A program made the position numbers and the translations under genes. The notes under the pieces were generated by a model that saw only the letters and a program-made list of their open reading frames with translations, did not search any database and was not told where the DNA came from. A DNA stretch of 64,000 bases from Nitrospiraceae bacterium. GTDB taxonomy: Bacteria > Nitrospirota > Thermodesulfovibrionia > UBA6902. Shown piece after piece: positions 3,728-62,722 of this stretch (positions within the stretch are counted from its first letter, which is position 1; each line of letters begins with the position of its first letter). The stretch is from the NCBI GenBank assembly GCA_003599275.1, contig QZJG01000057.1:6556-70555 (forward strand). Direction: 5' to 3'.

Positions 3728-4798
3728 ATGAAAATGAAAAAGATATACGCACTCATACTGACACTCATATTGTTCAGCACAGGATATTCGGAGGCCGCGG
3801 TGGGCACGGTTTCCCCTCCATCGATTTCAGTAACGAAGGGCGTCCCGTCAACAGCGACTCTGGTCTACCGGCTGAGCGACGTTGCAGCTACCAATTGCGA
3901 ATACAGGTCGAGCAAGGGCAGCTTCATCGGGGGAACGAGTCCGCTGCTCGAAGAAAATCCGGTTGCGCTCACGGTTGTCATCCCTTCCACGATCAACAGC
4001 GGCTCGGCAACCGAAACGCTCAGGGTCTCTGCAGGCCTTATCGAGAAGGCACTGCGCCGGGATATCCGCACGTTTACGTACACGCGTGTATTTGAGTCTG
4101 TTACTTGTGATGATATTGCAGTAACGATGAATGTGACGATCACGGTCAAGGGTGAGGCATCCGCGGAATTCGGAATAACCCGCATGGAGCTCTACTTCGA
4201 AAACCGGAGGCCCGAAATCACAATCGGGAGAAACACGCCGGACCTGAAGGCCTTTGCCGACGTCCGTTTTGCAGGTTCGGGTCTTCTGGAGGGATACTGG
4301 GAGGTTGATGGAAGGCTCATCAGCCGTGAGTTCCGCCATCTCATATACGGACGGAGCGTTACGCTCCAGTCGCCGCAGGTCCCCGGCCTGCCGACTTTTG
4401 ATGAAGGCTCTCATGTCGTTCGTTTTGTGATTACCAAACCTGTTTCGGACATTGCCACGCCTTTCATCGTCTATTTCGTCACACCGAAGGAGATGAAGGT
4501 CCGGCAGGCCCCGCTTCTGCTTCTCGTTCCTGTCGAAGGGGGAAGCGCCAAAGCGGAGACGAAATTCTCCTGGGAGAAGCCTGAGGGAGCAAACATTTTC
4601 CTCATTTCCTTTTATGAGGACCGCGGGGGAACGCCTATCTTCTCGGCATATACGCGGGAGCCGTTCTATTCGCTTCCCGGACCTGTGGCAAGCAGGGTCT
4701 TTACGGCTGAAAGGCAGTATTTCTGGAAGGTGGTCGGATTCGATGCAGAGAATCAGGAGACGAGCGAGAGCGACAAGAGGGCTTTCATTATTAATTGA
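3728..4798 (+). CDS. Secreted hypothetical protein, third gene of the Fn3 cluster
   Basis: It has a signal peptide (KKIYALILTLILFSTGYSEA). The gene starts 4 nt after the previous stop and ends 3 nt before uvrB. I recognise no motifs. Confidence 0.6.
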   Translation: MKMKKIYALILTLILFSTGYSEAAVGTVSPPSISVTKGVPSTATLVYRLSDVAATNCEYRSSKGSFIGGTSPLLEENPVALTVVIPSTINSGSATETLRVSAGLIEKALRRDIRTFTYTRVFESVTCDDIAVTMNVTITVKGEASAEFGITRMELYFENRRPEITIGRNTPDLKAFADVRFAGSGLLEGYWEVDGRLISREFRHLIYGRSVTLQSPQVPGLPTFDEGSHVVRFVITKPVSDIATPFIVYFVTPKEMKVRQAPLLLLVPVEGGSAKAETKFSWEKPEGANIFLISFYEDRGGTPIFSAYTREPFYSLPGPVASRVFTAERQYFWKVVGFDAENQETSESDKRAFIIN

Positions 4799-4801
4799 AC
4801 A

Positions 4802-6811
4802 ATGAAAAGGGACAATAAGGCCACGGGCGCATTCAAATTGATCTCCGGCTTCAGGCCAACCGGCGATCAGCCGAAGGCCATTGAACGGCTTACGGAAGGT
4901 GTTCTAAATAAAACGGGGCATCAGGTCCTCTTGGGCGTTACCGGCTCCGGCAAGACCTTTACCATTGCCAATGTCATAGCGAATATAAATAAACCGGCGC
5001 TTGTCATTGCGCACAACAAGACCCTTGCGGCACAATTATACGGCGAATTCAAGTCCTTCTTCCCTGAGAACGCGGTGGAATATTTTGTGAGTTTCTACGA
5101 CTACTATCAGCCTGAAGCGTACCTCCCGTCCACCGACACGTATATTGAAAAAGACTCCATGATAAACGAAGACATTGACAGGCTGAGGCACGCGGCGACA
5201 CGCTCTGTGCTTGAAAGAAACGATACCGTTATCGTGGCCTCGGTCTCGTGCATCTACGGCATCGGATCGCCTGAGGATTATTCAGACATGCATCTGAGTA
5301 TAGAGAAAGGGATGCGGACGGAGAGGGACGCATTCCTGAGAAAGCTTGTTGATATGCTTTATGAGCGCACGGAAGACTTCAAAAGGGGCACGTTCAGGGT
5401 GAGGGGCGATATCGTGGAGATATTCCCTTCTTTTTCAGGCGACAACGCGATAAGGGTTGAATTCTTCGGAGATGACATAGACGGGCTGTATGAGTTTGAT
5501 TCTCTCTCCGGCAAGGTAATCAGGCGTATTGAAAAAATCGATCTTTATCCCAACAGCCACTGGATCACGCCGAGGCCGAGGATCGAAAGGGCGCTCTCTA
5601 CTATTAATGAAGAGCTCGGAGAGAGGTTGAATTTTTTCCTGAGGCAGGGCAGGGAGCTTGAGGCAAAGAGACTTGAGCAGAGGACGCGCTTCGATATGGA
5701 GATGCTCAAAGAATTCGGATACTGCCACGGTATAGAAAACTACTCGAGGCATTTAAACGGCAGGATGCCGGGAGAGCCGCCGTACTGCCTCATAGATTAT
5801 TTCCCGGAGGATTTTCTCGTTATCATCGACGAGTCCCACGCAACGGTCCCGCAGATAGGGGGCATGTACGAGGGAGACCGGTCGAGAAAACAGACGCTCA
5901 TTGACTTCGGCTTCAGGCTTCCGTCCGCGCTCGATAACCGCCCGCTCAGGTTTAATGAGTTTGAGCACAGGGTGCGGGAGGCGATTTATGTCTCCGCGAC
6001 ACCCTCGGAATATGAGCTTAACAAATCCGGCCGCCGCATTGTGGAGCAGATTGTCCGGCCCACGGGGCTGATGGACCCGGTTATTGAAGTGCGGCCTGTT
6101 GCCGGGCAGCTTGATGATCTCCTCGGAGAGATCAGGAAGAGGGCAGAAGGCGGGGAAAGGGTGCTGGTTACGACCCTTACAAAAAAAATGGCGGAGGATA
6201 TCACGGAGTACTATACGGAATTGGGGACCAGGGCACGGTATCTGCACTCCGATATCGATACCCTTGAGAGGATCGAGATCCTGCGCGACCTGAGACTCGG
6301 CAAATTCGACGCGCTCATCGGAGTGAACCTGTTGAGGGAAGGGCTGGACCTTCCGGAGGTGTCGCTTGTTGCGATATTCGATGCCGACAAAGAGGGCTTC
6401 CTGCGATCGGGCCGCTCCCTTATCCAGACCTCGGGAAGGGCCGCGAGGAATGTGAACGGCATTGTCATATTCTATGCCGACAAAATAACCGGCTCGATGA
6501 AGACCGCCATCGATGAGACAACCAGGAGACGGAAGATCCAGGAAGCTTACAATAAAAAGCACAAGATAACCCCGACATCGATCAAAAAGGAGATAACGAA
6601 TATCCTCAGCTCCATTTATGAAGCGGACTACTGGACGGTGCAGGCGGTGGCTGAGGAAAAGGTCGAATACGGCGACGAGTCCGTAATCATAAAACTCGAA
6701 GAGGAAATGAAAGAAGCCGCCAAGCGACTCGATTTTGAAAAGGCCGCGGAGATAAGAGACCGCATCAGGGCGATAAAGAATAAACAGATCGAGGTAGGGA
6801 TCAAGGTGTAG
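4802..6811 (+). CDS. uvrB: Excinuclease ABC subunit B
   Basis: Walker [10 protein letters not shown] is present, along with the YDYYQPEAY beta-hairpin region and helicase motifs. The C-terminal UVR domain is present ([24 protein letters not shown]). Confidence 0.97.
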
Positions 6812-13817: not shown

Positions 13818-13898
13818 GTCATTGCGAGGAGTGAAACGACGAAGCAATCTCGCAGTCATAAATAGATTGCCACGCTCCCGTTGGTCGCTCGCAATGAC
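13818..13898. repeat. Palindromic repeat, GTCATTGCGAG family, copy 1
   Basis: The sequence is GTCATTGCGAGGAGTGAAACGACGAAGCAATCTCG...AGATTGCCACGCTCCCGTTGGTCGCTCGCAATGAC. It lies between dprA and topA. Confidence 0.9.
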
Positions 13899-24704: not shown

Positions 24705-24813
24705 GTCATTGCGAGCCAAAGGCGAAGCAATCTCTTTTTATCGCTCGGGATAAACTCCACAAGCTCAAGCTGTTACAAGGAGATTGCCACGGTCGTATCG
24801 ACCTCGCAATGAC
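24705..24813. repeat. Palindromic repeat, GTCATTGCGAG family, copy 2
   Basis: The sequence is GTCATTGCGAGCCAAAGGCGAAGCAATC...GAGATTGCCACGGTCGTATCGACCTCGCAATGAC. Its loop (CTCTTTTTATCGCTCGGGATAAACTCC..) is shared with copy 5. Confidence 0.9.
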
Positions 24814-25997: not shown

Positions 25998-27125
25998 TTA
26001 TGGTATATTGCGGGAACTTAACTCCTCAGTATTCTTTATCGTTGTGCCGGGGTAAAAGTGTTCGAGTATTTCCCTGTAATTTCTCCCCTCTTTTGCCATT
26101 TCAAGCGCGCCCCACTGGCTAAGTCCAACGCCGTGGCCATAACCTTTCCCGTCAAAGATAATCTCCGTATCGGTCTTTTTGATTGAAAAGTCGGTGCTGG
26201 GCAATTCCTTGTATCCAAGCGCTCTCCGGAGCTCCGTCGCGATCACTTCCTTCACTTCATTGGTTTCGGTAAGGAGCTTGAGCGTCCGTGCGCGGCCAGT
26301 TGCCGTATAAGAGGCAATATATATGTCCTTAAGTCCGGTTATGCCGAGGGCCCTGCTGATTTCCTCAGGCGAAAAACGCCTCTGCCAGCTCTCGTAAGGG
26401 GCGTTCTTGCAATTGCACTCCACTGACTTGAGATAAGGGAAACTTTCCTTCCAGACCTCTTCGGGAAGCTCTGTCCTGCCTTCACACGTCGCGTGATAAA
26501 AGGCCTTTACCGGGTCCCTTCCGTACATCAGTATCTCTCCTTTTGTAGCGTTCACCGCCCTTTTAACCGCAGGCTCGACATCCTCGCCCTCCTTATAAAG
26601 CTGATGAAGCACGCTTGACGTCAGATGGAACCGGTCCCCTGAATTGATGTTTTTGTAAAGCAAAGCATAAGTCCTCGATATGACTGCCTGCGCCTTCATG
26701 GCCTCTATCTCCCAATCCTTGCCCAGCTCCGAGGCAACAACCCCCTCGATATACTTCTCAAAGGGCAGGTTATTAATGACATGAAGTCCGTTTTTGTCCC
26801 GCAGGATTTCAAACGAGCCCGAATAAGATTGACCGCTAAAAAAAATCTTGCCCGTTAACCCTTCGACTTTCTCCGCATCTGCCGAAGGTAATGGTTGGCC
26901 GGGGGATTCGAGCATGAGGACCTTGATGGTGTCGTCGGCAAAAGTTACAACTGCGGAAAGGGAAGACAGGACCAGCGTTGCAGTCATTGCGAGGACCCGA
27001 AGGGTCCGTGGCAATCTGGCACGGACCGCCATGTTACACAAAGCAATGAATCTTGCGAGATTGCTTCGGTCGTATCGACCTCGCAATGACAGCTCTCCGG
27101 CAAAGGGATTGCAATAATTTGTCAT
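25998..27125 (-). CDS. SpoIID/LytB domain protein; start uncertain (27125 or 26987)
   Basis: The SpoIID core is present (AQAVISRTYAL, FYHATCEGRTE, GHGVGLSQWGA). Residues 13-48 of the track ORF are a translated GTCATTGCGAG-family repeat. MTATLVLSSLSAVVTFA (ATG at 26987) would be a normal signal peptide. Confidence 0.85.
   Translation of the reverse strand: MTNYCNPFAGELSLRGRYDRSNLARFIALCNMAVRARLPRTLRVLAMTATLVLSSLSAVVTFADDTIKVLMLESPGQPLPSADAEKVEGLTGKIFFSGQSYSGSFEILRDKNGLHVINNLPFEKYIEGVVASELGKDWEIEAMKAQAVISRTYALLYKNINSGDRFHLTSSVLHQLYKEGEDVEPAVKRAVNATKGEILMYGRDPVKAFYHATCEGRTELPEEVWKESFPYLKSVECNCKNAPYESWQRRFSPEEISRALGITGLKDIYIASYTATGRARTLKLLTETNEVKEVIATELRRALGYKELPSTDFSIKKTDTEIIFDGKGYGHGVGLSQWGALEMAKEGRNYREILEHFYPGTTIKNTEELSSRNIP
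26983..27090. repeat. Palindromic repeat, GTCATTGCGAG family, copy 3, inside the 5' end of the spoIID ORF
   Basis: The sequence is GTCATTGCGAGGACCCGAAGGGTCCGTGGCAATC...GAGATTGCTTCGGTCGTATCGACCTCGCAATGAC. Confidence 0.9.
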
Positions 27126-27352: not shown

Positions 27353-27997
27353 TTACTCCCTTGTTCTCCTGCTCAGTTCTTTGGCCTTTACCTCCTCCTC
27401 TCTTTCCTGTCTGCTGTAAACGCACCCGCAATACTTTTGTCTGTAAAGGCCGAGTTCTTTCGAAAGGGCTATCGCGTCCCTGAAATGCGGCCTGAAGTCC
27501 TTCTCGTAGAAAGCGACCTTATGCTTTTCAGAGAGCTCCTTACCGGTAGTTACAATCCGGTCATAGTCCTGATAAGGGCTGATGAGCAGCGTTGTAGAAA
27601 AGGCATCAAAGCCCTCATCACTTGCCGACCTGGCGGTCTTTTCAAGTCTGAGCCGGTAGCATGATTTACACCGTTCGGGGAAAGGAGGTGCATTGTCATT
27701 GCGAGCCGTAGGCGAAGCAATCACATTCTCAGGAGATTGCTTCGTCGTTTCACTCCTCGCAATGACATATCGGACATGTTCAAAATATTCTTCCGGCTTG
27801 TATTCATTCTCATAAATCATTTCAACATGCCATATGTCAGACAGTTTTTTCAGAGAGTTAAGCCTCAATTGATACTCTTCATGCGGGTGAATATTGGGGT
27901 TATACCAAAAGCCGGTGAAGTCGTGCCCGTCTGAACGCGACAGTTTAATGGGGTAAAGGGCACAATTGCCGCAACATATGTGGAAAAGGATTTTCAT
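27353..27997 (-). CDS. queH: Epoxyqueuosine reductase QueH (DUF208), carrying a 24-codon in-frame repeat insertion
   Basis: It has the N-terminal HICCGNC motif, NIHP..EY, and ERC.SCY.LRLE.TA. Codons VIARSETTKQSPENVIASPTARND correspond exactly to repeat copy 4. Confidence 0.85.
   Translation of the reverse strand: MKILFHICCGNCALYPIKLSRSDGHDFTGFWYNPNIHPHEEYQLRLNSLKKLSDIWHVEMIYENEYKPEEYFEHVRYVIARSETTKQSPENVIASPTARNDNAPPFPERCKSCYRLRLEKTARSASDEGFDAFSTTLLISPYQDYDRIVTTGKELSEKHKVAFYEKDFRPHFRDAIALSKELGLYRQKYCGCVYSRQEREEEVKAKELSRRTRE
27695..27766. repeat. Palindromic repeat, GTCATTGCGAG family, copy 4 (72 bp, inside queH)
   Basis: The sequence is GTCATTGCGAGCCGTAGGCGAAGCAATCACATTCTCAGGAGATTGCTTCGTCGTTTCACTCCTCGCAATGAC. 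Its length is a multiple of 3 and it has no stop codon in the queH frame. Confidence 0.9.
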
Positions 27998-28021: not shown

Positions 28022-28158
28022 GTCATTGCGAGCAGGTCCCTCGCTTCGTCATTGCGGGCCAAAGGCGAATCAAGCTCTTTTTATTGCTCGGGATAAACTC
28101 CGCAATCTCAACCTGCTTTCAAAGATTGCTTCGGGGACTTTTGTCCCCTCGCAATGAC
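28022..28158. repeat. Palindromic repeat, GTCATTGCGAG family, copy 5 (composite, two left arms)
   Basis: GTCATTGCGAG sits at 28022, GTCATTGCGGG at 28048, and the right arm ends in CCCCTCGCAATGAC at 28158. It lies between queH and ruvB. Confidence 0.9.
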
Positions 28159-28183: not shown

Positions 28184-29200
28184 TCAAAACAAATCTTCGC
28201 CTTTCTTTAACCCGAAATGCTCATACGCCCGTTTCGTTGCGACCCTGCCCCTCGGCGTCCTTTCGAGGAACCCTTCCTGCAAAAGGAACGGCTCATACAC
28301 GTCCTCGATCGTGTCCCTTTCTTCCCTTATCGAAGCGGCAAGCGTCTCAAGCCCGACCGGGCCGCCGCTGTATTTTTCTATAATCGCGAGAAGGAGTTTC
28401 CTGTCCATCTCATCGAAACCCATAATATCGACGTCCATTGCGTGAAGGGCTTCCTTTGTAATTCCCAGTTCAATCACCCCCGTGCCTTTTACCTGCGCAA
28501 AATCCCTTGTGCGCCGGAGAAGGCGGTTTGCTATCCTCGGCGTCCCCCTTGACCTTCCGGCGATCTCGGCTGCCGCATCGCCTTTGATCTCCGAATTCAG
28601 AATTATTGCAGAACGAAGAAGTATCCGCTCGAGGTCTTTGGGCACATAAAAATCCAGTCGGTTAATTATTCCAAACCGGTCTCTCAACGGTGAGGTCAGC
28701 AGGCCGGTCCTCGTTGTAGCGCCGATTAACGTAAATCGGGGCAGGTTCAATTTAAGAGACCGGGCGCTCGGTCCCTGTCCTATAATGATATCAAGCTGAT
28801 AATCCTCCATTGCGGGGTAGAGGATTTCTTCCGCCATCCTCGGGAGCCTGTGGATCTCATCAATGAAGAGGATGTCTTTTTCGCCAAGGTTCGTGAGTAT
28901 GGCCGCGAGGTCCCCCGGCCTCTCAAGCACCGGACCGGAAGTCACCTTAATCTCCGCCCCGATTTCAAGAGCGATTATGTGGGCCAGTGTTGTCTTGCCA
29001 AGACCCGGAGGCCCGCAGAACAGAACGTGATCAAGCGCCTCGTTCCGCTGCTTCGCAGCCTGAATGAAGACTTTGAGGTTCTCTTTAATCTTGTCCTGTC
29101 CGACAAAGTCATCAAATGTCCTCGGTCTTACGCTCAGCTCAAAGTTTATGTCGTCCGGGATGACTTCGGGTGCAATGCTTCTTTGCGGTATGTCTTTCAT
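28184..29200 (-). CDS. ruvB: Holliday junction branch migration helicase RuvB
   Basis: Walker [12 protein letters not shown] and the [14 protein letters not shown] and RFG motifs are present. The ATG is only 5 nt from the repeat arm at 29206. Confidence 0.97.
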
Positions 29201-29205
29201 GGATT

Positions 29206-29565
29206 GTCATTGCGAGGGGACGAAGTCACCGAAGCAATCTCATAAGGTTTCATACAAATCATTCCACTCAGGATTTAATTTATTAATTATTGCAATCTTT
29301 TTAGCCCTTGATCCAGCCTTGATTTGTTTTTCTCTAACAATAGCATTCTCAACATCTCTACAAATTTCATAGAAAACCAATTTATTAATATTGTATCTTT
29401 TGGTAAAGCCTTCAACTATTTTTTCTTTATGCTCACAAGCCCTTCTCTTTAAGTCGTTGGTTATGCCGGTGTATATTACGTTATGATCCTTATTTGTCAT
29501 TAAATAAATATAGTATTGTTTTTCTCTCATTGAGATTGCTTCGTCGCTTCGCTCCTCGCAATGAC
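29206..29565. mobile_element. GTCATTGCGAG-family element (copy 6) with a GIY-YIG nuclease ORF between its arms
   Basis: The left arm is GTCATTGCGAGGGGACGAAGTCACCGAAGCAATCTCA (29206-29242). The right arm is TGAGATTGCTTCGTCGCTTCGCTCCTCGCAATGAC (29531-29565). The outer 12 nt and inner 12 nt are perfectly complementary. The ORF fills the loop. Confidence 0.7.
29240..29530 (-). CDS. Small stand-alone GIY-YIG (URI-domain) nuclease family protein
   Basis: The sequence is KQYYIYLMTNKDHNVIYTGITNDLKRRACEHK...GFTKRYNINKLVFYE...A..REKQIK......K...I...NPEW.DL. This is the GIY...YIG pattern with conserved R and E residues and resembles COG2827/UPF0213. Confidence 0.85.
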   Translation of the reverse strand: MREKQYYIYLMTNKDHNVIYTGITNDLKRRACEHKEKIVEGFTKRYNINKLVFYEICRDVENAIVREKQIKAGSRAKKIAIINKLNPEWNDLYETL

Positions 29566-29571
29566 AGCTAT

Positions 29572-30159
29572 TTACTTATCCGTCAGATATTTTAATGCTT
29601 CCCGAATTATAACTTCAATAGTGGTTACGCCGTTTTTAACGGCTTTCTCGACTGCCTTTTCAGATGGCGGTTTTTTATAACCGAGATTAATAAGGGCTGA
29701 TACAGCGTCTTCGGCAGCGCTTTTCTCTCGTGAAGAAAACGCACCCACGGCATTCAGGGCAGGCAGTTTACCTTTGAGCTCGAGGACGAGCCTTGCCGAG
29801 GTCTTCTGTCCGAGCCCGGGGATGGTAGAGAGAAGTGAAACGTCTCCGCTGTCTATCGCCTCAATAAATCTCTGCACATGCATCCCGGACAGGATAGCGA
29901 GGCCGAGCTTGGGCCCTACGCCGTTGATCCCGAGAAGGACAGTGAATACCTTCCGTTCTTCTTCCGTTAAGAACCCGAAAAGCTGAAGCGCGTCTTCTCT
30001 TACGTGCGTGTAGGTGTGAAGGAATACGGTTTCGCCCTGTTCGGGGATATCACAAAGGCTGCACAGAGGGACGCATACATGATACCCGACACCGTTGACG
30101 TCTACGATTACGCCCTCGGGTTTTTTGCTGAGGATTATGCCTTTAAGAGATGCAATCAT
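29572..30159 (-). CDS. ruvA: Holliday junction DNA-binding protein RuvA
   Basis: The MIASLKG N-terminus is followed by HhH motifs (LLGINGVGPKLGLAILS and IPGLGQKTSARLVLELK) and a C-terminal domain III. Confidence 0.93.
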   Translation of the reverse strand: MIASLKGIILSKKPEGVIVDVNGVGYHVCVPLCSLCDIPEQGETVFLHTYTHVREDALQLFGFLTEEERKVFTVLLGINGVGPKLGLAILSGMHVQRFIEAIDSGDVSLLSTIPGLGQKTSARLVLELKGKLPALNAVGAFSSREKSAAEDAVSALINLGYKKPPSEKAVEKAVKNGVTTIEVIIREALKYLTDK

Positions 30160-31554: not shown

Positions 31555-31654
31555 GTCATTGCGGAGCCTGTTCCGAGCCTATCCTGAGATTGCTTCGTCC
31601 CGATGTTTCGGGACTCGCAATGACAGGAGAGGAATCTCTGCTCCTTGCAATGAC
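31555..31654. repeat. Palindromic repeat, GTCATTGCGAG family, copy 7 (one left arm, two right arms)
   Basis: The sequence is GTCATTGCGGAG...GAGATTGCTTCGTCCCGATGTTTCGGGACTCGCAATGAC, followed by GAGGAATCTCTGCTCCTTGCAATGAC. The second arm matches copy 8. Confidence 0.85.
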
Positions 31655-31866: not shown

Positions 31867-31950
31867 GTCGTCATACCCGTGAAAACGGGTATCCAGAAGG
31901 CTTTGTTTTTCAACGAAACTGGATTCCCGATTACTACCTCGGGAATGACG
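31867..31950. repeat. Palindromic repeat, GTCGTCATACCCG...GGGAATGACG family, copy 1
   Basis: The sequence is GTCGTCATACCCGTGAAAACGGGTATCCAG...CTGGATTCCCGATTACTACCTCGGGAATGACG. It is near-identical to the copy at 60763-60838. Confidence 0.85.
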
Positions 31951-34020: not shown

Positions 34021-34054
34021 GTCATTGCGAGCAGCAGAGATTCCTCGCAATGAC
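34021..34054. repeat. Palindromic repeat, GTCATTGCGAG family, copy 8 (minimal 34-bp form)
   Basis: The sequence is GTCATTGCGAG-cagcagagattc-CTCGCAATGAC, with perfect 11-bp arms. Confidence 0.9.
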
Positions 34055-35068: not shown

Positions 35069-35344
35069 TACCACAGAGGCACAGAGATTTAGAATTAAGA
35101 GTCAAGCATATTGGATTTAAATAGTCTGTAATTCCACTTTGCAATCAAGATGACGCCTTTGTTATTCCGGTCAGAGATTCGTACCGAACTTGTCCGGAAT
35201 CTTTCTTTGTTTTCAGAAGGATTCCCGACGCGCTCCGCTTGCGGGAATGACAACTTAAACACTTAATGGAATAAGATCTTTAAACATATCTCATAACTCT
35301 ATACTCTTTATTGTCTTCCTCCGTGCCTCTGTGTCTCAGTGGTT
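35069..35344. repeat. CACAGAG-family element, long form, copy B (carries a nested insertion)
   Basis: The sequence is TACCACAGAGGCACAGAG...TAGTCTGTAA[144 bp]ATCTTTAAAC...CCGTGCCTCTGTGTCTCAGTGGTT. Confidence 0.85.
35132..35275. mobile_element. 144-bp nested insertion in copy B, containing a GTTATTCCGG...GCGGGAATGAC palindromic element (35161-35251)
   Basis: The segment is absent from the otherwise collinear copy A. In copy A, TCTGTAA is followed after 2 nt by ATCTTTAAAC. Confidence 0.7.
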
Positions 35345-36214: not shown

Positions 36215-36272
36215 GTCATTCCGGCTTGTCCGGAATCCTTATAAAAGAAGATTCCGGACAAGCCGGAATGAC
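36215..36272. repeat. Palindromic repeat, GTCATTCCGGC family (perfect 23-nt arms)
   Basis: The sequence is GTCATTCCGGCTTGTCCGGAATC-cttataaaagaa-GATTCCGGACAAGCCGGAATGAC. Confidence 0.9.
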
Positions 36273-43030: not shown

Positions 43031-43141
43031 GTCAGTGCGAGGTCGATACGACCGAAGCAATCTTTTTTTAGCTATTAATAAGAGCCGTAAGCTTTCAGCC
43101 AGAGACGAGATTGCTTCGTTGCTGAAGCTCCTTGCAATGAC
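43031..43141. repeat. Palindromic repeat, GTCATTGCGAG family, copy 9 (degenerate termini GTCAGTGCGAG / CCTTGCAATGAC)
   Basis: The sequence is GTCAGTGCGAGGTCGATACGACCGAAGCAATC...GAGATTGCTTCGTTGCTGAAGCTCCTTGCAATGAC. It lies between thpR and recA. Confidence 0.85.
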
Positions 43142-60385: not shown

Positions 60386-60474
60386 GTCATTGCGAGGAGC
60401 ATTAGCGACGAAGCAATCTCACTGGATATAACCGGGCCGAGATTGCCACGCACCCTTCGGGCGCTCGCAATGAC
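60386..60474. repeat. Palindromic repeat, GTCATTGCGAG family, copy 10
   Basis: The sequence is GTCATTGCGAGGAGCATTAGCGACGAAGCAATCTC...GAGATTGCCACGCACCCTTCGGGCGCTCGCAATGAC. Confidence 0.9.
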
Positions 60475-60762: not shown

Positions 60763-60838
60763 GTCGTCATACCCGCGAAGGCGGGTATCCATGTCATAAC
60801 ATGGAAGTGGATTCCCGATTACTACCTCGGGAGTGACG
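60763..60838. repeat. Palindromic repeat, GTCGTCATACCCG...GGGAGTGACG family, copy 2
   Basis: The sequence is GTCGTCATACCCGCGAAGGCGGGTATCCATG...GTGGATTCCCGATTACTACCTCGGGAGTGACG. Confidence 0.85.
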
Positions 60839-62266: not shown

Positions 62267-62325
62267 GTCATTGCGGCTTGTCCGCAATCCTTCTTAAAGA
62301 AAGATTCCAGGCAAGCTGGAATGAC
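62267..62325. repeat. Palindromic repeat, hybrid GTCATTGCGGC...GCTGGAATGAC
   Basis: The sequence is GTCATTGCGGCTTGTCCGCAATCC-ttcttaaagaaa-GATTCCAGGCAAGCTGGAATGAC. It lies directly upstream of the rSAM gene. Confidence 0.85.
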
Positions 62326-62640: not shown

Positions 62641-62722
62641 GTCATTGCGAGGAGCGGTTTCAGCGACGAAGCAATCTGTAATTTATTGAAAAGTGAGATT
62701 GCTTTGCTTCGCTCGCAAAGAC
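62641..62722. repeat. Palindromic repeat, GTCATTGCGAG family, copy 11
   Basis: The sequence is GTCATTGCGAGGAGCGGTTTCAGCGACGAAGCAATC...GAGATTGCTTTGCTTCGCTCGCAAAGAC. Confidence 0.85.

Follow-up and report, generated by a model that had tools for sequence, protein, structure and literature searches.

A GIY-YIG nuclease gene flanked by oriented hairpin repeats between ruvA and ruvB of a Nitrospirota genome, very probably a member of the published Ssn-SRM systems

Why would a small nuclease gene stand between two hairpin repeats at the junction of ruvA and ruvB? The initial annotation of this DNA had placed a GIY-YIG open reading frame there, bounded by two arms with complementary outer and inner ends, and had offered two readings: that the nuclease acts on the repeats that flank it, much as in REP/RAYT systems, or that shorter copies of the repeat elsewhere are its internally deleted, MITE-like derivatives. 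The open reading frame and its arms are as described, and within the 64-kb stretch that was analysed (the window) they have the following layout.

28184..29200, minus strand: ruvB, the downstream neighbour, 371 nt from the ruvA stop codon.
29201..29571, no strand: the whole inserted block from ruvB start to ruvA stop, made up of the 360-nt module and 5 and 6 flanking nt.
29206..29242, read on the plus strand: the downstream arm, GTCATTGCGAGGGGACGAAGTCACCGAAGCAATCTCA, with its GTC head distal and the ssn stop codon in its tail.
29240..29530 including the stop codon, minus strand: the ssn gene for a 96-aa single-domain GIY-YIG nuclease, assigned by Pfam and BLASTP to the Ssn family.
29531..29565, read on the minus strand: the upstream arm, GTCATTGCGAGGAGCGAAGCGACGAAGCAATCTCA, with its GTC head distal and its tail abutting the ssn ATG.
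29572..30159, minus strand: ruvA, the upstream neighbour.

The fine geometry agrees with that first description as well: the left arm holds the ssn stop codon (29240-29242) within its conserved 3' tail, the right arm is adjoined by the ssn ATG (29528-29530), and the gap between the ruvB ATG and the left arm is 5 nt (29201-29205).

What kind of enzyme does the gene encode? In Pfam, PF01541 (GIY-YIG) matches residues 5-78 of the product with E 2.6e-16, and no other domain is matched; the assignment of the fold is unambiguous. The protein aligns without gaps to the 94-aa SsnA orthologue of N. gonorrhoeae (BLASTP, 40% identity, 69% positives, E 6e-28), a sequence that we took from an N. gonorrhoeae chromosome mislabelled as a plasmid in PLSDB, and in a tblastn search of that chromosome it reaches E 4e-18, within the threshold of E < 1e-10 by which Chenal et al. 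(Nat Commun 2025) recognise SsnA homologues (PMC11893778). Its residues Y9, Y20 and E67 align, at the same spacing, with Y6, Y17 and E64 of SsnA (the GIY Tyr, the YIG Tyr and the metal-binding Glu). Nm SsnA mutated at these residues no longer cleaves (PMC11893778), and all three are present in the gonococcal orthologue, itself encoded within an array of 16 NTS copies in 3.2 kb. Among 79 homologues, Y9, Y20, G22, R30, H34, E67 and N86 are each conserved in at least 95%. Judged by its sequence, the window protein is thus an Ssn-family enzyme, a homologue of SsnA with the catalytic residues retained; in CDD the Ssn nucleases correspond to model cd10448 (GIY-YIG_unchar_3). The label "COG2827-type" that it had been given turned out imprecise: a PDB sequence search returned no solved Ssn structure, and the sole solved relative, the UPF0213 protein 1ZG2, was the best match at E 0.01. 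Profile searches of NCBIfam and PHROGs gave no informative family, and TIGR01453 scored 17.6 bits, far below its cutoff of 56. No fragments or paralogues of ssn were found elsewhere in the 64-kb window. Carriage of ssn by phages was considered and rejected, as viral contigs yielded distant partial relatives only and no close ones.

The hairpin repeats themselves follow one plan. Each arm is 28-37 nt long and runs, in order, through GTC, ATTGC, GAG, a variable inner hairpin, GAAG, GCAAT and C, with invariant ends (GTC at 5', C at 3'), an outer 5-bp stem formed by ATTGC/GCAAT and an internal loop of GAG/GAAG. The outer 13 nt and the inner 13 nt of 29206-29242 and 29531-29565 are 100% complementary, and the middle third is not shared between the two arms of one pair. 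Because the middle thirds differ, an arm pair is two different hairpin units in opposite orientation rather than one long palindrome; the earlier picture of a gene in a palindrome's loop is therefore right about the flanking arms and imprecise about the geometry, each arm being an independent oriented hairpin. DNA folds give identical outer stems and inner stems of differing sequence, the downstream arm folding into the outer 5-bp stem and an inner hairpin with a GAA loop at -5.5 kcal/mol. In a covariation test made without assuming head-tail pairing, head type predicted tail type (TTGC in 126 of 155 cases, TTCT in 10 of 11, off-diagonal counts of at most 2). A literature search with the arm sequence returned unrelated primer matches only. 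In NTS, the invariant GTC and C are positions critical for cleavage and for binding (PMC11893778).

Hairpins between genes can also act in RNA, and the arms might be terminators, processing sites or regulatory stems of a ruvA-ssn-ruvB transcript, unconnected with the nuclease; they could fold in RNA too, and MITEs such as Correia undergo RNase III processing (PMC10969869). This we regard as very unlikely. An Rfam scan of the whole window found one tRNA only and matched the arms to no RNA family; the arms lack a T-tract, terminator-like sites are not in excess, and a promoter and terminator scan around the module gave nothing exceeding the shuffled background. Arms also occur in both orientations relative to transcription, one of them inside a coding frame, and their inner loops belong to the d(C-GAA-G)/d(GCGAAGC) type, which forms very stable DNA mini-hairpins. 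Moreover, SsnA did not bind RNA in vitro (PMC11893778).

Is the pairing of arms and gene peculiar to this genome? We searched the 200-nt flanks of 80 homologous loci from many phyla with a strict arm motif and found arms on at least one side in 65, and outward-pointing arms on both sides in 43, the kind of flanking that the initial annotation had suggested testing in paralogues. Within 200 nt of the gene there are 6.2 arms per kb, and elsewhere in the same loci 0.18 per kb, a 35-fold difference; several of the 15 homologues without a strict arm within 200 nt have imperfect ones. Start and stop codons lie 0-20 nt from arm tails at the window module and at many homologue loci. The stem class of a module is the same in its nearest protein neighbour in 52 of 68 cases, where permutations average 32 and reach at most 45, and the ATTGC bipartite hairpin is the commonest class among relatives of the window protein. 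Homologues of ssn are systematically arm-flanked across phyla, and together with the binding and cutting of such hairpins, as ssDNA, by the SsnA family (PMC11893778), this supports the REP/RAYT-like reading of a nuclease flanked by the repeats on which it acts. Could two abundant solo repeats merely have landed beside a resident small gene? The genome is rich in repeats and relatives have an insertion hot spot where ruvA meets ruvB, but ssn itself is missing from those relatives, the enrichment of arms beside homologues extends over 80 genomes, and flanking on both sides in the same orientation at 43 loci compares with a strict-motif expectation, by our own arithmetic, of about 0.002 for each strand of each flank. 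Chance juxtaposition is effectively refuted.

How do these arms relate to published motifs? The degenerate pattern for the Ssn-related motif (SRM), HGTCWYN(0-2)YYVSBRHN(0-5)WNVSBRGN(0-2)RNCYNB (PMC11893778), and the strict NTS consensus match no long arm in the window, where the pattern finds three sites (17966 and, at 31869 and 60765, two copies of the short repeat class listed below), and the pattern matches the flanks of only 5 of the 80 relatives. The arms share with NTS the invariant HGTC head, a palindromic core and the 3' C. Since the published pattern misses the long arms, the motif link rests on this shared architecture and on homologues with canonical NTS, such as L073 (57% identical), which carries the literal Neisseria NTS consensus on its flanks. 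We consider it very probable that the window module is an Ssn-SRM module, its two arms being copies of the enzyme's cognate SRM, and a member of this already published system. The estimates of Ssn-repeat association reported so far, 71% and 42% (PMC11893778), may be too low, given that the commonest arm class escapes the published pattern.

The ruvA-ruvB junction records how the module arrived. In the relatives L081 (RuvA 82% identical) and L082 (79%), ruvA and ruvB overlap by 4 nt or are separated by 3 nt, and the junction has neither ssn nor arms, a presence/absence difference of the kind suspected at the outset. Because the genes nearly abut in close relatives and the ssn open reading frame has 29% GC (48% in the window, 50-53% in the neighbouring genes), the block is an insertion: arm, gene and arm entered a ruvA-ruvB junction that was ancestrally coupled, and did so as one discrete unit of foreign composition. 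No target-site duplication was visible at three insertion sites compared with empty sites. In at least one relative, L082, GGAG can be read in the 3' end of ruvA, roughly 10 nt 5' of the ruvB start, and it is plausible that ruvB lost its ribosome-binding context through the insertion. Elsewhere, the modules L028 and L032 of one MAG are 97% identical, with homology that begins 3 nt 5' of one head and stops just beyond the other; Ssn modules have been duplicated within one genome, the homology ending at the heads.

Did the whole module insert, or did the gene enter a pair of arms that was already there? SRM pairs might pre-exist as landing sites, with the product of the ssn ORF nicking arms and the ORF copied into empty pairs by recombination on roughly 35 nt of arm homology, and the classic homing nucleases include GIY-YIG enzymes. 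It is the ORF alone that makes up the low-GC segment, and the bounding arms resemble others in the window, the upstream arm (29531-29565) sharing 94% identity with those at 13818 (+) and 27766 (-) and the downstream arm (29206-29242) 92% with the one at 28158 (-); the closeness of start and stop codons to arm tails at many loci would fit as well. We nevertheless judge such homing unlikely. An empty ATTGC pair at ruvA-ruvB was sought in six relatives and found in none, two junctions being bare and four carrying other, unrelated insertions; arms are conserved across phyla anyway, which makes their likeness to local arms weak evidence for homing; and some 35 nt of arm is little homology for homing that depends on RecA.

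The same hairpins recur well beyond the module. With at most one mismatch allowed, the window contains 25 copies of GTCATTGCGAG, where 1.2 are expected and none of 100 shuffles gave more than 4. The repeat is found, as initially reported, at 10 further loci, most of them head-out pairs whose arms stand 10-80 nt apart. These loci, and the copies of a second, shorter repeat class, are listed here, with strands where a feature has one.

13818..13898: gene-less head-out pair of long ATTGC-class arms.
24705..24813: gene-less head-out pair, left arm and spacer sharing 91% identity with 28048-28111 across 64 nt.
26983..27090: gene-less head-out pair at the 5' end of spoIID.
27695..27766: head-out pair of 72 nt, inserted in frame within queH, where it lengthens a loop of the protein by about 24-28 aa.
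28022..28158: pair with an extra truncated head, between ruvB and queH.
31555..31654: degenerate left head, complete right arm (31588-31624, minus strand) and truncated extra head (31625-31654, minus strand).
34021..34054: collapsed pair, 12 nt joining two heads.
43031..43141: gene-less head-out pair with slightly degenerate heads.
60386..60474: gene-less head-out pair.
62641..62722: gene-less head-out pair, right arm shortened.
36215..36272: pair of short NTS-like motifs, GTCATTCCGGCTTGTCCGGAATC, the second repeat class.
31870-31893 (plus), 31922-31949 (minus) and 35220-35251 (minus): more short NTS-like copies.
60766-60789 (plus), 62267-62289 (plus) and 62303-62325 (minus): more short NTS-like copies.

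The insertions in queH and between ruvB and queH are absent in relatives (in L081, ruvB and queH are only 3 nt apart), which marks the gene-less pairs as insertion-polymorphic. Gene-less arm pairs have spread through this genome, including one in-frame insertion into queH. Empty and filled ruvA-ruvB junctions, the sharp-ended duplicate modules of a single genome and the truncated "stutter" heads outside complete arms are observations that bear on whether the modules are mobile elements.

Are the gene-less pairs then remnants of the module? Arm-ssn-arm could be an autonomous transposon and the pairs its internally deleted, MITE-like copies, mobilised in trans through terminal inverted repeats; Chenal et al. 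had already remarked on an IS-like layout (PMC11893778), the module is a discrete insertion known in two sharp-ended copies from one genome, the pairs are insertion-polymorphic, and the loci at 24705 and 28048 share an arm together with its spacer. Several features make this improbable. Nothing in the spacers between gene-less arms resembles the ends of the ssn ORF, and no target-site duplication is visible. Identical arms serve as the left arm in one pair and the right arm in another; this re-assortment and the differing middle thirds indicate that the copied unit looks like a single arm, not a fixed pair of terminal inverted repeats. Within the arms, inverted repetition is confined to the conserved thirds. 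The pairs in the window lack the usual marks of MITEs, and the proposal that the short copies are internally deleted derivatives is not borne out. To our knowledge, GIY-YIG enzymes hydrolyse DNA and have no strand-transfer chemistry, which counts against a transposase role; it follows that Ssn alone cannot explain insertion.

How, then, might the modules move? By analogy with its characterised relatives, the window enzyme would bind an arm hairpin solely in single-stranded DNA, such as the intermediates of replication, repair, conjugation or transformation, and would cut the motif-bearing strand a few nt 5' of GTC. Since both heads point outward, the predicted cuts fall just outside the module ends, the plus-strand cut near 29202 and the minus-strand cut near 29569; that the window protein cuts these particular arms, and at these positions, we infer from what is known of the family. 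Nicking by Ssn followed by host recombination or repair may be what spreads the arms and the module, and a role at the level of the host, such as the restriction of incoming ssDNA as in Neisseria, may exist in addition. We tentatively raise the possibility, no better than one among several, that Ssn-SRM modules are a hitherto unrecognised class of bacterial mobile elements in which a ssDNA-hairpin nuclease of about 95 aa is the only encoded function: nicks about 4 nt 5' of the outward GTC heads would set the ends, host replication and repair would complete the process, and arms and arm pairs would be non-autonomous progeny that add peptide loops to proteins across phyla.

Why does the locus matter? 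The Ssn-SRM kind was already published in 2025, and the window module adds to it the long ATTGC arms that the published search pattern misses. The comparison of filled and empty ruvA-ruvB junctions catches arm, gene and arm entering an essential recombination operon as a unit, and the queH pair indicates that arm pairs are able to insert in frame into enzymes, here QueH. If the modules are indeed mobile elements, they would generalise the phenomenon of Rickettsia palindromic elements (RPEs). A new pairing of enzyme and motif, with a long modular hairpin, is also of practical interest because work is under way to develop Ssn enzymes into programmable cutters of ssDNA.

Several known systems resemble the module in part. 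REP/BIME repeats with RAYT (TnpA-REP, an HUH Y1 enzyme) and IS200/IS605 elements likewise have a small enzyme gene flanked by the ssDNA hairpins that the enzyme recognises, with repeats amplified genome-wide, often as inverted, BIME-like pairs, and without target-site duplications. In the window, however, the flanked gene is GIY-YIG only and not an HUH Y1 transposase; strand transfer through a covalent intermediate is not available to a GIY-YIG hydrolase fold, and the predicted Ssn cuts fall on opposite strands at the two ends rather than on one strand. RPEs are palindromic repeats that enter protein-coding genes in frame at permissive loops (PMC10969869); the queH insertion behaves alike, whereas RPEs are about 150 bp long and were defined in Rickettsia, which is listed among the SRM-rich genera (PMC11893778). 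Correia and other bacterial MITEs are, like the gene-less pairs, short, bounded by inverted repeats and insertion-polymorphic between relatives, but the window arms have no target-site duplication and no DDE-transposase parent, re-assort independently and enclose unrelated spacers. GIY-YIG homing endonucleases of the I-TevI type share the catalytic fold and an association with mobile DNA; the window protein differs in its 96 aa without DNA-binding domain or linker and in its TIGR01453 score far under the cutoff, its gene lies outside any intron, intein or phage, and its family cuts ssDNA, not dsDNA (PMC11893778). UPF0213/YhbQ-type proteins (PDB 1ZG2) are also stand-alone GIY-YIG domains of about 100 aa, although the window protein, whose match to them is marginal, is not of the UPF0213 subfamily. 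We know of no repeat association in that family.

The closest counterpart remains the Ssn system, in which a single-domain GIY-YIG enzyme cuts ssDNA beside hairpin repeats that flank its own gene (Chenal et al.; PMC11893778); it is a described case, of which the initial annotation was not aware, of bacterial hairpin repeats linked to a small GIY-YIG protein that stands alone. Chenal et al. describe the NTS-ssnA-NTS layout and its analogy to REP/RAYT, raising IS-likeness as a hypothesis only, and cleavage is site-specific, restricted to ssDNA and placed a few nt 5' of the motif in four homologues (PMC11893778). The window module departs from it in several respects: its arms, at 28-37 nt, are of a longer and bipartite type with a variable inner hairpin; arm tails abut the ORF, whereas in Neisseria the heads of the nearest NTS face the gene; one window pair lies in frame inside a gene, while NTS in N. 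meningitidis are rarely intragenic (2%; PMC11893778); and, set against published Ssn hosts, its host is a Nitrospirota MAG. What the two share is a protein of about 94-96 aa with a single GIY-YIG domain and a catalytic spacing identical to that of SsnA, a gene bracketed by oriented hairpin repeats with invariant 5' GTC(AT) and 3' (AT)C, and repeats scattered in many genome copies and widely distributed across phyla.

The association of a GIY-YIG gene with the hairpin repeats around it is real, but the system, that of the Ssn nucleases and their Ssn-related motifs (SRM), has already been published (Chenal et al., Nat Commun 2025, PMC11893778); what appears to be new here is a Nitrospirota Ssn with a long SRM of the ATTGC class. 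On the minus strand the region 28184-30159 runs ruvA, a 96-aa ORF (ssn), ruvB, with ruvC and yebC upstream, and ssn is bounded by two oriented repeats, here called arms, each with a GTC end (head) and a 3' end (tail):

29572..30159, minus strand, ruvA
29531-29565, arm bounding ssn
29240..29530, minus strand, ssn ORF, 96 aa, sole Pfam match PF01541 (GIY-YIG), E 2.6e-16
29206-29242, arm bounding ssn
28184..29200, minus strand, ruvB

On re-examination of the window, everything that the initial annotation stated as fact about the ORF, the arms, their complementarity and the repeat loci was correct. The outer 13 nt and inner 13 nt of the two arms are perfect complements, and the ORF (29243-29530) has a GC content of 29%, against 50-53% in ruvA and ruvB and 48% in the window. 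The arms are GC-rich, and the compositional break falls at their tails. A promoter and terminator scan around the module (the 360-nt arm-ssn-arm block) gave no signal above background, and the idea that the arms act at the RNA level finds no support.

The window protein is a member of the Ssn family with an intact active site. In N. meningitidis, SsnA, which belongs to CDD family cd10448, consists of 94 aa with GIY-YIG as its single domain, and Y6A, Y17A and E64A abolish its cutting (PMC11893778). Searched by tblastn against PLSDB, window Ssn matched (E 4e-18) a 2.17-Mb N. gonorrhoeae chromosome recorded there as a plasmid (L091, NZ_CP119140.1:1880787-1884044); because the ORF has 94 aa, carries Y6, Y17 and E64 and lies among 16 NTS copies (the Neisseria repeat) in 3.2 kb, it is identified as the gonococcal SsnA orthologue. 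A second PLSDB 'plasmid', NZ_CP119142.1, is likewise a 2.17-Mb gonococcal chromosome, and ssnA is unannotated in both. BLASTP aligned window Ssn with gonococcal SsnA over 89 ungapped residues (40% identity, 69% positives, E 6e-28), setting Y9, Y20 and E67 on SsnA Y6, Y17 and E64, and across 79 aligned homologues Y9, Y20, G22, R30, H34, E67 and N86 each show conservation of at least 95%. Two other assignments were rejected: the UPF0213/YhbQ type is not close (E 0.01 to 1ZG2), and a group I intron endonuclease scored 17.6 bits against a cutoff of 56.

What, then, is the repeat? The 11-mer GTCATTGCGAG, allowing at most one mismatch, occurs 25 times in the window against 1.2 expected (shuffle maximum 4). 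The repeat is present at 10 further loci, nearly all of which consist of a plus-strand copy followed after 10-80 nt by a minus-strand copy. Read on its own strand, each copy is a single oriented unit of 28-37 nt: GTC, ATTGC, GAG, a variable segment, GAAG (or GTGG), GCAAT, C, then TC. The variable segment is unlike between copies, even between both arms of one pair, and in most copies forms its own small stem-loop (GTCG-ATA-CGAC, GACCC-GAA-GGGTC, GGGGAC-AAAA-GTCCCC, TCCCGA-AACA-TCGGGA). With DNA parameters, most copies fold into an inner hairpin that an internal loop separates from a 5-bp outer stem. A pair is therefore not one long palindrome: it consists of two distinct hairpin units, oppositely oriented, whose GTC heads point outward. 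Several copies have C-GAA-G or GCGAAGC loops, which form unusually stable DNA mini-hairpins. At 34021-34054 lies a collapsed element in which 12 nt link two complementary heads (GTCATTGCGAG-CAGCAGAGATTC-CTCGCAATGAC) and whose middle resembles a truncated head at 31625-31654(-). The latter, like 28022-28047(+), is a 'stutter' copy of the arm 5' half, a GTC head plus about 15-25 nt without a tail, of a kind that shares its strand with a complete arm and lies 15-45 nt beyond it, sometimes 2-3 in tandem (58 cases, from 23 of the 80 related loci, e.g. L013, L028, L053); repeated rounds of nicking and repair at the head may have left such copies as footprints. The window also holds a second, short class of motifs, about 23-32 nt (e.g. 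GTCATTCCGGCTTGTCCGGAATC, GTCATACCCGCGAAGGCGGGTATC) and close to the Neisseria NTS:

31870-31893(+), short NTS-like motif
31922-31949(-), short NTS-like motif
35220-35251(-), short NTS-like motif
36215-36272, short NTS-like motif
60766-60789(+), short NTS-like motif
62267-62325, short NTS-like motif

The window contains no second copy or fragment of ssn, so either a single Ssn serves both repeat classes or the genome has another ssn outside the window.

Ssn homologues number in the thousands, most of them flanked by SRM, described verbally as 20-50 nt hairpin repeats (PMC11893778). Scanning one genome per species, we collected 80 loci with 44-70% identity to window Ssn, including MAGs labelled Omnitrophota, Chloroflexi, Ignavibacteria, Patescibacteria, Bacteroidota, Acidobacteriota, Alphaproteobacteria and Actinomycetes, as well as a Nostoc isolate and clostridial families. 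With a strict, sequence-agnostic arm (GTC, a 5-nt stem whose first base is A, a loop of 3-50 nt, the exact complement of the stem, C), outward-pointing arms occur within 200 nt of the gene on both sides at 43/80 loci and on at least one side at 65/80, and the density of arms is 6.2 per kb beside the gene against 0.18 per kb in the remainder of the same loci. Such systematic co-location, with its 35-fold enrichment, excludes chance juxtaposition, runs counter to both outcomes named earlier as refuting the idea (paralogues that lack arms, arms that landed beside a resident gene by chance) and bears out the earlier REP/RAYT-like reading of a nuclease flanked by the repeats it acts on, although cutting of the arms by window Ssn itself is inferred from homology. 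The stem is lineage-dependent (ATTGC, ATCCC, ATTCC, ATCCT, ATTCT, ATCGC, ATTAC, ATTTC), and head type predicts tail type almost exclusively in a test that does not presuppose pairing, which is compensatory covariation of the outer stem. At one homologue (L073, 57% identical) the flanking motif is TGTCATTCCCGCGAAAGCGGGAATCCAG, which is the Neisseria consensus letter for letter, and L078 carries a doubly compensated version of it; protein nearest neighbours share a stem class in 52/68 cases (permuted labels: mean 32, maximum 45) in a sample biased to the ATTGC class. The published degenerate SRM pattern matches none of the window's long arms, hits only three sites there (17966 and the short motifs at 31869 and 60765) and falls within 300 nt of the homologue gene at only 5/80 loci. 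The operational pattern thus under-detects the ATTGC-class arm, a variant with an internal loop and a variable inner hairpin that is still inside the verbal description.

Comparison with relatives shows that the module has been inserted. Those closest by RuvA (79-82% identity) retain the order yebC-ruvC-ruvA-ruvB-queH-DUF2905-spoIID-queA; in L081 ruvA and ruvB overlap (GTGA), in L082 they lie 3 nt apart (TAA ATA ATG), and neither has ssn or arms. In the window the ruvA-ruvB junction measures 371 nt (TAA-ATAGCT-[360-nt module]-AATCC-ATG). Cuts about 4 nt 5' of each GTC head, following our interpretation of the Neisseria mapping, would give a 368-nt block and rebuild an empty site TAAAT|CATG with the 3-nt spacing of L082, a solution that fits the model without being the only one. 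In one Peribacteria MAG, two modules (L028, L032) are 97% identical, their homology starting 3 nt 5' of one head and ending just beyond the other. The ruvB ATG is now preceded, 39 nt upstream, by the ssn stop codon, and the insertion has parted ruvB from its coupling partner and, compared with L082, from a GGAG in the ruvA 3' end; the earlier remark that ruvB lacks a Shine-Dalgarno sequence was therefore fair. The junction resembles a hot spot for insertion: L081 and L082 have nothing there, and in other close relatives it holds unrelated palindromic elements of short length (from a GGCACAGAGG.. family and a CCCCTCTTTTTCAAAGAGGGG family, and a dRS3-like palindrome that lacks a head):

L083:4592-4682, palindromic element
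L085:2466-2570, palindromic element
L086:3092-3149, palindromic element
L087:3092-3189, palindromic element

That ssn homed into an empty arm pair would fit the sharpness of the compositional boundary at the arm tails, but none of the six relatives compared has an empty ATTGC pair at this junction, and these four carry the unrelated elements instead.

Like the module, gene-less pairs are mobile, for they too occur as insertions. The ruvB-queH gap holds a 137-nt arm cluster in the window against 3 nt in L081, and ATTGCGAG-type heads number 11 in the window's 7 kb against 0 in the relatives' syntenic regions. Within queH (27353..27997, minus strand) a 72-nt pair lies in frame at 27695-27766 (peptide ..RYVIARSETTKQSPENVIASPTARNDNA..), adding about 24-28 residues to a loop that is short in three relatives. 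In L087 (region 4298-4981) the same loop carries a different in-frame palindromic repeat (..PLFKRRELFPPLSKGDEGGF..), so one permissive QueH loop was struck independently by two repeat families, a behaviour like that of Rickettsia palindromic elements (RPEs). The spoIID ORF (25998..27125, minus strand; 375 aa at annotated length) starts inside the pair 26983-27090, and the repeat encodes roughly the first 45 of its residues (..ELSLRGRYDRSNLARF..RVLAMT..); its true start or signal peptide may therefore have been altered by insertion. The proposal that short copies are internally deleted, MITE-like derivatives of the gene-bearing element is weakened: pair spacers are mostly unrelated to one another and to the GIY-YIG gene, arms re-assort (13818(+) and 27766(-), left arm at one locus and right at the other, are 100% identical over 34 nt), and no target-site duplication is visible at any of three insertion sites compared with empty ones, ruvA-ruvB among them.

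By homology, window Ssn would recognise the arms when extruded or exposed as single strands and would place its nicks immediately beyond the heads, close to 29202 (plus strand) and 29569 (minus strand). With lower confidence, processing of these nicks by host replication or recombination might disperse arms and module; to our knowledge, a GIY-YIG hydrolase cannot by itself join DNA. A host-level role is possible by analogy with Neisseria, where SsnA restricts NTS-bearing transforming ssDNA (PMC11893778).

Useful additions to the published system are clean filled and empty ruvA-ruvB sites, the in-frame queH insertion and evidence that the published SRM motif pattern is too narrow. The NTS-ssnA-NTS layout has been likened to an insertion sequence and to the REP/RAYT system (PMC11893778), and the ruvA-ruvB locus sharpens, rather than answers, the question of whether Ssn modules should count as a new class of mobile element. 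For SsnA to bind it, the hairpin repeat NTS (CGTCATTCCCGCGMAVGCGGGAATCYRG) must be single-stranded DNA, and the cut falls a few nt upstream of the repeat; GTC, the three bases 5' of the palindrome, matters most for cleavage and the C directly 3' for binding (PMC11893778). The nearest NTS heads face ssnA in N. gonorrhoeae, the opposite of the window layout. NTS and window arm have exactly the same frame: GTC, an AT-initiated palindromic stem, a loop, a complementary stem ending in AT, and C.
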